A stretch of 64,000 nucleotides of DNA, from the NCBI GenBank assembly GCA_937896905.1, contig CALBOE010000006.1:57336-121335 (forward strand), in the 5' to 3' direction. The DNA is from an uncultured Clostridia bacterium (GTDB lineage Bacteria > Bacillota > Clostridia > Christensenellales > UBA1242). Both the position numbers and the translations under genes were made by a program. Of the stretch, positions 2,679 to 35,829 are shown piece by piece (within the stretch, counting starts at the first letter, position 1; each line of letters starts with the position of its first letter). A model generated the notes under the pieces. That model searched no databases. It was given only the letters and a program-made list of their open reading frames with translations, and was not told where the DNA came from.

Positions 2679-4634
2679 ATGGAATTTAGAAATTTTGAAT
2701 TAGTAAGTAAATATAAACCCACTGGCGACCAGCCCGAAGCCATAAATTCTTTGGTGGAAGGCATTAAAGATGGCTTAACTTCGCAAGTTTTAAAAGGGGT
2801 TACAGGAAGCGGAAAAACTTTCACAATGGCAAACATAATTGCCCAAGTTAACCGCCCTACTCTTGTGCTTGCGCACAATAAAACGCTTGCCGCTCAACTC
2901 TGCAACGAGTTTAGAGAATTTTTCCCTAACAACAGAGTTGAATTTTTTGTTTCGTATTACGATTACTATCAACCCGAAGCATACATAGTTTCTAGCGACA
3001 CATATATTGAAAAAGACATGAGCGTTAATGACGAAATAGATAAACTTCGCCACAGCGCCACAAGTAGTTTGTTAGAGAGAAGCGACACCATTGTCGTTGC
3101 GTCTGTTTCTTGCATATACGGTTTGGGTGGGCCAGAAGAATATTATAATTTGCACATTTCCTTGCGTGCTGGCGATAAACTTACCCGTGAAGAACTTATA
3201 AGCAAACTTGTTGCAATTCAATATCAGCGCAATGAAATAGATTTTGCCCGTTCCACATTCCGTGCAAGGGGTGATGTTGTAGACATATTCCCGGCAGATA
3301 GCAGCGAACGTGCTATAAGAGTTGAGTTTTTTGACGATACAATTGAACAAATTAGCGAATTTGAAGTTGTTACTGGAAAAGTTTTAAACAGATTACAACA
3401 CGCAGCCATATTCCCTGCCACACACTATGCGGTGGGAAGTGAAAAACTGCAACAAGCTTTAAAACAAATTAAAATTGATGCACAAGAACGGGAAGAATAT
3501 TTTAACGCACAAGGCAAATATATAGAAGCGCAACGCATTAGAGAACGCACCAACTACGACCTTGAAATGATGCAAGAAATGGGCTATTGCTCTGGCATTG
3601 AAAACTACTCCCGCTATTTTGACGGAAGAAGCCCTGGAATGCCACCCTACACCCTTTTAGACTATTTCCCAAATGGTTTCCTTTTGTTTGTGGACGAAAG
3701 CCACATAACAATACCGCAAGTGCGTGGAATGTATAATGGAGATAGAGCCAGAAAAACAAACCTTGTAGATTACGGGTTCCGTCTTCCTAGCGCTTTTGAT
3801 AATCGCCCACTAGATTTTGAAGAATTTAACCGACGACTAACTCAAACAATTTACGTTTCAGCAACACCTAATGATTATGAACTTAACCTTTCGGGCAACA
3901 CTGTTGAGCAAGTTATTCGCCCAACCTATTTGTTGGACCCTGAAATTGAAGTTCGCCCAAGCAGTGGCCAAGTTGACGATTTATATGACGAAATTAACAA
4001 ACAAACGGCCAAAAAAGGCAAAGTTTTAGTTACAACTTTAACCAAGAAAATGGCAGAAGATTTATGTGCATATCTAGGTGAAAATGGTGTTAGAGTTAAA
4101 TACTTGCACAGCGATATAGATACTTTGGAAAGGGTTAAAATTTTAAACGAACTTCGTGCCGACGAATTTGATGTGCTTGTTGGTATTAACCTGTTGCGTG
4201 AAGGATTAGACCTGCCAGAAGTTACACTTGTTGCCATATTAGATGCCGATAAAGAAGGTTTCTTGCGTTCTGCAACCTCCTTAATTCAAACAATCGGGCG
4301 TGCCGCACGTAACAGTGAAAGTAAAGTTATTATGTATGCCGACAACATAACAGATAGTATGAAAAAGGCAATAGACGAAACTAACCGCAGAAGAGAAATT
4401 CAACAAGCCTATAACACTGCCCATAACGTTAAACCTGTTACAGTTAAAAAAGCAATTGTGGATACGCTTAAAATTAGAATGGATAAAAAAGAAGAAAAAA
4501 TGAGCAAGGCAGATATTATTAAAAACATTGAACAAATGAAAGGTATGATGCAAACTGCAGCAAATCAGCTAGATTTTGAAACCGCCATTAAACTCCGTGA
4601 AGAAATTGCCAAACTTAAACGAAAACTGCGATAA
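2679..4634 (+). CDS. uvrB: Excinuclease ABC subunit B
   Basis: 651 aa with Walker A GVTGSGKT, helicase motifs, and the C-terminal UVR coiled coil ([17 protein letters not shown]). Confidence 0.97.
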
Positions 4635-20522: not shown

Positions 20523-21605
20523 TTAATATGCAAATTCATTTAGTTTTTGCTTAATCATTTGTTTAAGCTGAACAATGTTTTTGTTGCTTTTTGCAGCAAC
20601 ATAGCAGGTGTCGTATGGGTAGGACTTTAATTTTTGAATGTCGGCGTTTGTTAGTTTATCCACCTTATTATAAACCAAAATAACCCTGTTAGGATCTATT
20701 GCCAACCTTGAAAACTCTCTTTCAACCACTTCAATTTGTTCATATTTATGTTCGTCGCTAGCATCAACCACCATAAGAAGAACATTAGAATCCAGCGTTT
20801 CTTCCAAAGTTGCCGAAAACGCATACATAAGTTCGTGCGGAAGATTGCTAACAAAGCCAACTGTGTCTATAAGCACATACTCAGTTCCATCGTCCCAAAC
20901 CTTTTTTGTTAAAACATCTAGCGTTGCAAACAACCTATCGTCCGCATACGTTCCGGCTTTTGCAATTGTGTTCATTAATGTGGATTTTCCAGCATTTGTG
21001 TAGCCCACCAAGGCAACGCTTTTCATTTTGCTTAACCTTTGTTTTCGTGTGGTTTGGCGGTGGCGCTGAATGTCTTTAATTTCCTTTTCTAACCTTGCAA
21101 TGTCTTCTTGCACTTTTCTTCTATCCAACTCTAATTTAGTTTCACCTGCTCCCCTCATTCCAACGCCCGTGCTGGCACGCTCGTTGTTCATATTCAAACT
21201 TGCAAGCCTTGGCAAACTATATTTAAGTTGCGCTAGTTGCACTTGAAGTTTTCCCTCTCCAGATTTTGCCCTGCCTGCAAAAATGTCTAGTATAAGCATG
21301 GTGCGGTCTATGGTTTTAACGCCTATAATTTCGTTTAAATTCCTTAATTGAGAGCCGGTTAAAGGGCAATCGAAAATAACAACATCTGCGCCCAAACGTG
21401 CAACTTCGTCCCTAATTTCTTCCGCCTTGCCAATGCCCATATATAATCTTGCATTAATTTCTTTTAACTGAAAAAGATTGCACTTAACAATTTCTAGCAG
21501 TGCCGATTCGGTTAAAAGTTCTAATTCTTTAGTTTTGTAGTCCGCCCCAATTAAGGTTGTGTATGGGCAAACTAAATACGCCTTTTCTTTTATAACTTCT
21601 TGCAT
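20523..21605 (-). CDS. hflX: GTPase HflX
   Basis: HflX N-domain (GKLQVQLAQLKYSLPRL) and G1 motif GYTNAGKST; DTVGF G3 motif. Confidence 0.9.
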   Translation of the reverse strand: MQEVIKEKAYLVCPYTTLIGADYKTKELELLTESALLEIVKCNLFQLKEINARLYMGIGKAEEIRDEVARLGADVVIFDCPLTGSQLRNLNEIIGVKTIDRTMLILDIFAGRAKSGEGKLQVQLAQLKYSLPRLASLNMNNERASTGVGMRGAGETKLELDRRKVQEDIARLEKEIKDIQRHRQTTRKQRLSKMKSVALVGYTNAGKSTLMNTIAKAGTYADDRLFATLDVLTKKVWDDGTEYVLIDTVGFVSNLPHELMYAFSATLEETLDSNVLLMVVDASDEHKYEQIEVVEREFSRLAIDPNRVILVYNKVDKLTNADIQKLKSYPYDTCYVAAKSNKNIVQLKQMIKQKLNEFAY

Positions 21606-21640
21606 AAGGATATTTTACTTCAAATCCTTTAATTTGTCAA
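21606..21640 (-). promoter_or_regulatory. Promoter placing the transcription start at the hflX ATG (leaderless layout)
   Basis: TTGACA (21640-21635), 17-nt spacer, TAAAAT (21617-21612), 6 nt, ATG at 21605. No SD sequence. Confidence 0.6.
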
Positions 21641-21685: not shown

Positions 21686-22483
21686 ATGCGTGTGTGTAAT
21701 TTGGCAAGTGGAAGCAGCGGCAACTGCACCTATATAGAAACTGAACAAGCAAAAATTTTAATAGATAACGGCAAGCCGCTATCTTATGTTTTTAATGCGC
21801 TAAACGAACTTAATGTTGCACCCGAAATGATTGACGCCATACTAATCACCCACGAACATAGCGACCATATTAAAGGTATTCAAAAGTTTGCCAAAACCTA
21901 TAATACAAAGGTTTATGCGCACACCGAACTTAGCGAAGTTGTGCAAAATCAAATACACATTCCAAGCGAAAATTTTGTGTTTTTTAATAGCGACTTTGAA
22001 CTTAACGGGCTTAAAATTCAACCTTTTGTGCTTCCGCACGATAGCCGCCACTGTGTGGGATATAGAGTTAGCGAAGGCGACGCCGTGGTTTCCATTTGCA
22101 CCGACTTGGGGCATTTTAGCGAACAAACGTATCAAGCAATAAAATCTAGCGCACTTGTGTTTTTAGAAGCGAACTACGACCCCGAACTGCTTATGAGCTA
22201 CCCTGGTTACCCTATATTTTTAAAAAGACGAATTAATGGGCAAAATGGGCATTTATGCAACCTAGATTGTGCCAAAGCAATAGAACAACTTGCAAATTCC
22301 GGCACAAGATTGGTGGTTTTAAGCCACATAAGCGAACACAGCAACACAACAAGCCTTGCCGTTTCCACCATTGCAAACTACTTAACCAGCAAAAATATAG
22401 TTCCAAATGTTAACATTAAGTTAGACATAGCCCATCACGAAAAACGCGGAACAATTTTTAGAATTAACCCAACAAAAAACTAG
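21686..22483 (+). CDS. MBL-fold metallo-hydrolase (YycJ-like)
   Basis: HEHSDH metal-binding motif and the N-terminal LASGSSGNCTYIE pattern. ATG 21686 preferred over the track TTG at 21680. Confidence 0.85.
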   Translation: MRVCNLASGSSGNCTYIETEQAKILIDNGKPLSYVFNALNELNVAPEMIDAILITHEHSDHIKGIQKFAKTYNTKVYAHTELSEVVQNQIHIPSENFVFFNSDFELNGLKIQPFVLPHDSRHCVGYRVSEGDAVVSICTDLGHFSEQTYQAIKSSALVFLEANYDPELLMSYPGYPIFLKRRINGQNGHLCNLDCAKAIEQLANSGTRLVVLSHISEHSNTTSLAVSTIANYLTSKNIVPNVNIKLDIAHHEKRGTIFRINPTKN

Positions 22484-22491
22484 CAAAATTG

Positions 22492-23292
22492 CTAGTTTTT
22501 TTCTTTGTTCTTTTTCCTAAAAATGGTGTTTAAACTTTGCTTCAACTTTGTTTTTGCTTTTTGCAACCTTTCGTTGTGCTTTTCCTCAAATTGCGCTTTT
22601 CTGTCCTCTTTTAATTTTTCTTTTTCATCCTTGTAACATTCCACTAATTGTTTAATTTCTTCTTTTATTTCAAGTTCTTGCATTTCTTGTTTAGATAGTT
22701 CAACTTTGTCAACCGAATTGTCAACTCCGCTAATTTTATTTGCTAATTTCTCAAAAGGTTTTGCAACAGCTTCCATGATTTTTGCTTTTGCAAGCCCCTT
22801 TTTGTCTGGTTCAAAAAATGGTTTAATAGGTTCAACGTCCATATTTATGGCAACGCAAATTTTGTTGTAGTAACTTTTAACAAGTTTCTCCACAAAAATA
22901 AGCACAATTTTAAACAAGACAGAAATAAACGAAAATACCATTAAAACAACGCCCAAAGCAGTTCCGCCAAATATTGCAAATTCCACAATCTTAATTATAA
23001 GCATTGCAAATTTGTCTAGGTCGGCACAATATTTAAACACCTTTTTGGTGGTTTTAACTTTGCCACTTTTTCGCTTTTTATATGAGGTGACATTAAAAAT
23101 CAAACTTGCAAACGACAATGCGGTTAAAATAATATATGGAATTAATAGCGACAAATGGTTTAAATTGGTACAAATTGAATATCCATATAACACTAAAAAC
23201 AACGCTTGAACAACAACGCTTACCCCCAAAATTGCCTTTTTAATGTCCTTAATTATGGCATCGCCAACTGCCAAAGTATTTTGAAATAACAT
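22492..23292 (-). CDS. Hypothetical membrane protein with Lys/Glu-rich coiled-coil C-terminus
   Basis: ATG 23292 preceded by an AGGAGAAAAAGA RBS; the track TTG at 23343 lies upstream of the predicted promoter. Several TM helices followed by a charged tail. Confidence 0.65.
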   Translation of the reverse strand: MLFQNTLAVGDAIIKDIKKAILGVSVVVQALFLVLYGYSICTNLNHLSLLIPYIILTALSFASLIFNVTSYKKRKSGKVKTTKKVFKYCADLDKFAMLIIKIVEFAIFGGTALGVVLMVFSFISVLFKIVLIFVEKLVKSYYNKICVAINMDVEPIKPFFEPDKKGLAKAKIMEAVAKPFEKLANKISGVDNSVDKVELSKQEMQELEIKEEIKQLVECYKDEKEKLKEDRKAQFEEKHNERLQKAKTKLKQSLNTIFRKKNKEKN

Positions 23293-23311
23293 TCTTTTTC
23301 TCCTTACGCAA

Positions 23312-23339
23312 ATAATATCACCCCCCCCCTCAATGTCAA
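23312..23339 (-). promoter_or_regulatory. Promoter with a G9 homopolymer inside the -35/-10 spacer
   Basis: Minus strand: TTGACA (23339-23334), 16-nt spacer ttgaGGGGGGGGGtga (the C9 run on the plus strand is 23321-23329), TATTAT (23317-23312). Confidence 0.6.
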
Positions 23340-23524
23340 GCAAATTTATGTTTTTTGTTTAAATTTGGGGCTTTGTGTTCAAAGGTGATATTTTATTGTG
23401 AATTATAATATAACAAAAGCAATTTGTCAAATTTGCGTTTTTTGTGATTAATTAAAAAAATGTTTGCAAAATTTAATAAATGTGTTAATATGAACATAAC
23501 AAGCAGTAATGCAAAGGAGTTTTT

Positions 23525-35252: not shown

Positions 35253-35319
35253 GAAGTTACGAAAAAACTTTGACATTTGAAAAAAAAAGGTATAGAATAT
35301 AAAAAATTAGGGGAGATTT

Positions 35320-35829
35320 ATGGAATTTATACACAGAATGAAAAAACGCGAATTCATTGAAATGACACTTAAAACAGTTATTGCCATTTTAGCGTCATTC
35401 ATTGCAATTATATTAATGGAAGGCATGATTTATAGCATAGAACTAAATTCATATATGAAATATGGAATTATGACGCTTAAACAACCAACCTCAACCATTG
35501 CCTACTGTATTGAACGTGGCGACGACGAATATTTCGTTCTTTACTACAATGAAGATAGTGAACCATTGTGGACTGCCGATGCAAAAGCTCCTCTTTTGTC
35601 AAAAGCAGATTGCCTAGCAATGGAAGGAACTGACGTTAAAGAAGTTGTGTTCCACGCACCTAACGCTTTCCAATTCTCAATAAGTGGCATTCACTTTGTT
35701 GTTATGGCAGTTTTCGTTGCCTTAATTGCAGGCTTCTTTGTATATAAATTTATTGCTTTGGGCAAGGAATATAAAAAGATTGAAGAAAACTTTAGAAAAA
35801 CTGGCACAATTGAAATTAACAACATTTAA
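35320..35829 (+). CDS. Hypothetical membrane protein (169 aa)
   Basis: TTGACA-17-TAGAAT promoter and an AGGGGAG RBS. N- and C-terminal TM helices. Terminator at 35838-35865. Confidence 0.6.
   Translation: MEFIHRMKKREFIEMTLKTVIAILASFIAIILMEGMIYSIELNSYMKYGIMTLKQPTSTIAYCIERGDDEYFVLYYNEDSEPLWTADAKAPLLSKADCLAMEGTDVKEVVFHAPNAFQFSISGIHFVVMAVFVALIAGFFVYKFIALGKEYKKIEENFRKTGTIEINNI

Follow-up and report, generated by a model that had tools for sequence, protein, structure and literature searches.

Within the 64-kb stretch of DNA analyzed here (the window), a run of nine G residues (G9) lies in a promoter spacer ahead of an accessory gene for a four-helix membrane protein. Two tandem candidate promoters of the sigma-70 type precede this gene, a distal one (P1) and a proximal one (P2), and the run separates the −35 and −10 boxes of P2. 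The gene and both promoters belong to a single segment that varies between strains. We propose that the tract could act as a slipped-strand "dimmer" on the proximal promoter, much as in porA of Neisseria meningitidis, and we hold this reading tentatively, at somewhat less than an even chance. The features of the locus and their positions are collected in Table 1.

Table 1. Features of the promoter region, the membrane-protein gene, and the strain-variable segment, with positions in the window
Feature	Position or length	Strand	Basis
Strain-variable segment, 959 bp (gene, P2, and P1)	22502..23460	.	Comparison with L009/L010
Bidirectional terminator hairpin, shared with the convergent metallo-beta-lactamase-fold gene	22474..22501	.	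Terminator scan, strain comparison
Gene for 266-aa four-helix membrane protein with K/E-rich helical tail	22492..23292	(-)	ORF, alignment, hydropathy, AlphaFold2
Shine-Dalgarno sequence AAGGAG, 7 nt 5′ of ATG 23292	23300..23305	(-)	Sequence
P2 extended −10: TG (23320-23319), a, TATTAT (23317-23312)	23312..23320	(-)	Sequence and consensus scan
G9 homopolymer (C9 on the + strand), within P2 spacer	23321..23329	(-)	Sequence and run-length census
P2 spacer	16 nt	(-)	Sequence
P2 −35 box TTGACA	23334..23339	(-)	Sequence and consensus scan
18-nt A-rich element ACAAAAAACATAAATTTG, immediately upstream of P2 −35 box	23341..23358	(-)	Repeat search and alignment
Distal promoter P1, TTGACA-17-TATAAT, 12/12	23402..23430	(-)	Consensus scan
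18-nt element, second copy ACAAAAAACGCAAATTTG; the P1 −35 box begins with its final 3 bases	23428..23445	(-)	Repeat search and alignment

On the minus strand, the P2 region reads cTTGACAttgaGGGGGGGGGtgaTATTATttgcgtAAGGAGaaaaagaATG (direct sequence reading), with its elements in the order TTGACA-ttga-G9-tga-TATTAT, followed by AAGGAG and the ATG at 23292. P2 scored 11/12 in the consensus scan, and the TG preceding its −10 box makes this an extended −10. The initial annotation had described TTGACA, a 16-nt spacer with G9, and TATTAT at 23312 to 23339, and the sequence bears out all of these coordinates. SSR promoter-spacer loci of the porA/opc type are marked by a homopolymer of about 8 or more between −35 and −10, and G9 is such a run. 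Judged from the usual distance between −10 and +1, the P2 transcript would start at or just before the Shine-Dalgarno sequence and would have a leader of about 13 nt.

The same run can also be read as coding sequence. An open reading frame of 283 amino acids (aa) that begins at TTG 23343 passes in frame through G9, and one public record (P0005) annotates the gene in this way. If translation did start there, the tract would encode Gly-Gly-Gly, and a one-base change would produce a frameshift, making the tract a translational switch. We regard this as highly improbable. TTG 23343 has no Shine-Dalgarno sequence or other ribosome-binding site (RBS), whereas AAGGAG stands just before ATG 23292, and the N-terminal extension of the 283-aa product is not conserved. 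In a four-sequence alignment, the family N-termini coincide with ATG 23292; most of the 150 family matches listed begin at residue 1, and an alternative public gene call of the same protein (P0001) is 266 aa long. The RBS position and the family N-termini indicate that the true start is ATG 23292 and not TTG 23343, and the coding reading of the tract was rejected on these grounds.

Prokaryotic genomes in general contain fewer poly-G/C runs than expected (PMC2831843). In a run-length census of the window (35% G+C), no G/C run other than C9 reached a length of 7, in line with the initial annotation, which called it the only long G/C homopolymer seen, and the second-longest was a single C6 (12846-12851). 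Runs of at least 9 are expected at 0.022 per window with independent bases and at 0.036 with a first-order Markov model; the tract is therefore clearly nonrandom as a feature of composition.

No feature of an assembly, especially a long-read one, is less reliable than homopolymer length, and the contig of another organism (L002) ends inside a G10 tract, so such tracts do disturb assembly. The run might on these grounds be an artefact of assembly or sequencing, or its length might be miscalled, in which case the true length could be G10, with an ideal 17-nt spacer. We consider this very unlikely. The run lies deep within its contig between clean and meaningful flanks, whereas the poly-G of two-color chemistry is generally known to occur at the ends of reads or contigs and to be much longer. 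In addition, public annotation P0005 translates across exactly nine G's, and an error of one base in either direction would still leave the tract in place.

Promoter matches of at least 11/12 number 15 in the window and 7.1 in shuffles, an excess of about twofold, and hexamer matches by themselves are therefore weak support for a promoter. At this locus, P1 and P2 each have an 18-nt A-rich element ahead of the −35 box, with 16/18 identity between the two copies and an alignment score reached by 0 of 2,000 shuffles. Because of this shared element, P2 looks like a partly duplicated promoter module, not two chance hexamers. P1 sits 90 nt upstream of P2 on the same strand, with no terminator-like site before the gene, and would yield a leader of about 100 nt containing the entire P2 sequence. 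The predicted fold of this leader is no better than that of shuffles (z = −0.9). An RNA element in the leader was considered and rejected on this score and on an Rfam search, which returned only a sub-threshold chance match.

Upstream DNA was read for three relatives of the gene. P0004 (contig L008) is preceded by TTGAAA-17-TATAAT and P0155 (L091) by TTGACA-17-TATAAT, each with no tract, and the upstream region of P0002 (L001 to L007) is likewise plain, has no tract, and is identical in seven samples. Compared with these three relatives, the G tract is, from the sequences read, specific to the present copy. A search of metagenome contigs for the flank pattern, with 4 to 16 bases allowed in place of the tract, gave no match, and no relative turned up when genome, metagenome, and viral contigs were scanned at the protein level. 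Exact look-ups of the 266-aa and 283-aa products likewise returned nothing. A Logan contig of 8,658 bp is listed as carrying the same protein and is the only other contig known to carry it. Taken as a proxy for homopolymer change among strains, the 8 kb shared with Logan contig L010, from another sample, contain a single 1-bp indel, which lies beside an A8 run.

Much of this evidence is also compatible with an incidental tract, that is, a G9 run that is real and may slip and has no meaningful regulatory role. We take this to be a serious possibility, if a little short of an even one. In one version, transcription would come mainly from P1, and the P2 sequence would simply be part of the long leader; P1 matches the consensus perfectly and resembles the plain consensus promoters of family members, and no terminator stands between it and the gene. 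In another version, P2 would fire at any nearby spacer length by way of its extended −10, and the TG motif that this calls for is present. The near-consensus matches, at only twice the chance level, and the three homologues with tract-free upstream DNA speak for the same conclusion, and by our estimate a few coincidences of a tract with a spacer would be expected by chance over very many windows. Against it stands the placement of the tract exactly between the boxes, for a G/C run of 9 that is 25 to 50 times rarer than one per window. The duplicated 18-nt element likewise argues for P2 as a genuine promoter module, and the P1 leader shows no significant folding through which the G run might serve some other purpose.

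For the tract to act as a dimmer, we infer that P2 fires, that the length of its tract varies, and that expression follows. P1 and P2 would together drive the strain-specific membrane-protein gene, and G9 would be intrinsically prone to slippage, gaining or losing one G at replication. Each such step would change the spacing of the P2 boxes, to 15 nt with G8, 16 nt with G9, 17 nt with G10, and 18 nt with G11, and the strength of P2 would be altered in a heritable and reversible manner. G8 would be expected to be weaker and G10 to be the canonical optimum, with G9 as the present state. The outcome would be graded, between expression from P1 only and expression from P1 plus P2.

We describe this as a graded dimmer rather than an on/off switch because transcription from P1 can continue into the gene and the −10 of P2 is extended. 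With a perfect promoter upstream and no terminator after it, the gene could stay active even if P2 were lost. A TG at an extended −10 lessens the dependence of a promoter on its −35 box and on spacing. Among promoter matches with 15- to 16-nt spacers near gene starts in the window, 4/4 carry TG, including that of the NTP-transferase gene; since the other short-spacer matches have this motif, P2 may already work with G9. The initial annotation had proposed a slipped-strand phase-variation switch, and mentions neither the extended −10 nor P1, the shared 18-nt element, or the absence of the gene and its promoters from a close strain. The anatomy of the spacer tract, which is exactly that of known poly-G/C spacer switches, its outlier status, and the accessory, strain-variable nature of the membrane-protein gene support that proposal in part; a clean on/off action is what P1, the extended −10, and the TG at other short spacers speak against.

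The closest known parallel in layout is found in N. meningitidis porA, where expression is high with 11 G's between −35 and −10, 2.2-fold lower with 10, and 13-fold lower with 9 (PMC3639595). Both loci have a G/C homopolymer within the range of 9 to 11 in the sigma-70-type promoter spacer of a membrane-protein gene, and in porA one-base steps shift the spacing and give graded expression, not an on/off response. The two differ in host, here an uncultured gut bacterium of low GC and Gram-positive type, and in product, here a four-helix protein of the inner membrane instead of an outer-membrane porin; the present locus also has a second, perfect promoter upstream in addition to the extended −10. 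Poly-C promoter tracts also occur in N. meningitidis opc and fetA. In Mycoplasma hyorhinis vlp, a poly-A run in the promoter spacer, about 17 to 18 nt long, controls lipoprotein families. The vlp system resembles the present locus in having a spacer homopolymer, a gene for a membrane or surface protein, and a low-GC, Firmicutes-related lineage, but the locus here has G9 on a single orphan gene where vlp has poly-A on lipoprotein families.

The membrane-protein gene is an accessory one. Logan contigs L009 and L010, which come from another sample, are 98.7 to 99.7% identical to the window over hflX, the metallo-beta-lactamase-fold gene, and the NTP-transferase gene. In these contigs, positions 22502 to 23460 of the window are wholly absent, and 15 bp stand in their place. 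With the 959-bp segment missing from a strain of 99% identity, the gene and its two promoters constitute a strain-variable accessory segment. Look-ups of the flanking genes returned this as the sole close strain, without the membrane gene; the nearest relatives of a neighboring gene are from gut "Clostridia/Bacilli/Mycoplasmatota" MAGs, at no more than 62% identity. Ancestral synteny was examined in related species, at 80 loci surrounding the NTP-transferase gene, and was rejected, as 0/80 have a family member beside that gene, which favors acquisition at the site over ancestral presence. An accessory, strain-variable gene for a membrane protein would fit a contingency locus.

The terminator hairpin at the edge of the segment holds the stop codon of the membrane gene and is kept in the strain that lacks the gene. 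Positions 22492 to 22501 of the window, which are the stop and the last two codons (K-N-stop), fall inside this conserved hairpin, and the boundary of the segment therefore lies within the 3′ end of the gene. Terminator-targeting mobile gene cassettes offer a comparison, in that the present segment is about 1 kb long, has a single gene with its own promoter(s), varies between strains, and is located at a terminator hairpin between housekeeping genes. It differs from terminator-loop cassettes in lying beside the hairpin, which stands intact at one edge of the segment, and not in its loop, and in having no convincing terminal inverted repeats. Of the best inverted pairs flanking the segment, one is 76% identical over 17 nt and the other is 14 nt long, with one arm inside the neighboring gene. 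No further copy of the segment ends was found within the window. A mobile cassette of the terminator-loop kind with terminal repeats is not supported, on three counts: the intact hairpin, the weak inverted repeats, and the lack of end copies.

A second small strain-variable insert lies less than 2 kb from the 959-bp segment. In L009, positions 3532 to 4059, which fall between positions 21619 and 21640 of the window, hold an additional 528 bp, located between hflX and the lactamase-fold gene. This insert carries a divergent pair of genes, one encoding a 67-aa Xre-type HTH protein and the other a product of 65 aa. A strain-specific indel abuts the hflX promoter, TTGACA-17-TAAAAT (window 21605-21640, minus strand; L009 3517-3560), so that the −35 box and spacer sequences of this promoter differ between the strains. 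In both strains, it ends 6 nt before the hflX ATG, which makes the hflX mRNA a candidate leaderless transcript.

Another promoter with a homopolymer in its spacer is found elsewhere in the window. At 35270 to 35298 on the plus strand, TTGACA-tttg-A9-ggta-TAGAAT has a 17-nt spacer and a layout like that of P2, and it is followed by GGGGAG and the ATG of a 169-aa membrane protein with two transmembrane (TM) segments (gene 35320-35829). This A9 is the only one in the window, and another sample (L092, SRR31940141), which holds a near-identical strain, has the same sequence over the tract and the surrounding 160 bp. Short leaders seem to be normal in the window, and the A9 promoter shares the geometry of P2, a point in favor of the dimmer reading.

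The 266-aa protein has hydrophobic stretches at about residues 16 to 44, 44 to 69, and 95 to 140 by hydropathy, of which the third could hold two helices, and a basic loop separates the second from the third. Its tail (residues 151 to 266; 116 residues) contains 29 K/R and 24 D/E. The AlphaFold2 model (pLDDT 90) places helices at residues 4-42, 47-72, 79-108, 112-153, 168-188, and 201-265, forming a four-helix bundle followed by long helices. Hydropathy, tail composition, and the model agree with the initial annotation of a multi-TM protein with a charged coiled-coil tail, insofar as they point to several TM segments and a charged helical tail. Under the positive-inside rule, the N-terminus, basic loop, and tail would be cytoplasmic, and only very short loops would face outward. 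With so little predicted to be exposed, the protein is not an obvious surface antigen, and from hydropathy and the model, immune or phage selection on a surface epitope would not be obvious either.

When 1.84 billion representative proteins were searched with a profile, 648 clusters were recovered at E ≤ 0.001, of which 322 were at E ≤ 1e-10, with clusters defined at 50% identity. The family is thus large, and it is uncurated. The protein has no usable match in Pfam or in PDB sequences, Foldseek against PDB and BFVD gave nothing at E ≤ 0.001, and PHROG and PADLOC gave only coiled-coil noise. In tblastn searches against phages and plasmids, the gene had zero matches. A phage, plasmid, or defense origin of the gene received no support from tblastn, PHROG, or PADLOC.

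The closest homologue, P0002 (44% identity; L001 2135-5929), lies in a different context, with a gene for a 96-aa protein upstream and genes for an FRG-domain protein, a TasA-like protein, and a reverse transcriptase (RVT_1) downstream. Seven metagenome samples share identical sequence across the P0002 gene and the DNA upstream of it, so the locus may be a mobile or defense island. On the same contig, which has a GC content of 27%, a G10 tract is located 44 nt upstream of a gene for a 240-aa protein (L001 3894-3960). The tract lies 16 nt upstream of a TATAAT and so overlaps the −35 position. From its N-terminus (…GGTYAYFTA), the 240-aa protein looks like a TasA/camelysin-type secreted fiber protein. 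The independent contig L002 terminates within this same G run.

A broader reading would have poly-G spacer tracts serve uncultured low-GC gut bacteria as contingency dimmers for single-gene cassettes that are passed on by horizontal exchange. We consider it rather unlikely as it stands, at roughly one chance in a handful or slightly better. On this reading, the 18-nt element and −35 box would have been duplicated, with the proximal copy bearing the G tract, and the G10 tract upstream of the TasA/camelysin-like gene in L001 would be a second instance. The four-helix protein could then be a costly envelope or phage-exclusion factor, with mixed expression in the population.

Slipped-strand promoter switches are textbook in a few pathogens (Neisseria, Bordetella, Mycoplasma, and Treponema). 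To our knowledge, they are barely documented in gut commensal Firmicutes, whose phase variation is discussed mostly in terms of invertible promoters. The locus described here is one more well-formed candidate switch. If real, it would be an SSR promoter-spacer switch of known type in an uncultured low-GC gut bacterium. If verified, it would give these uncultured lineages a further, cheap way to generate population heterogeneity with no recombinase and would flag the membrane-protein family, with its at least 648 clusters, as one with a cost-benefit (contingency) function.
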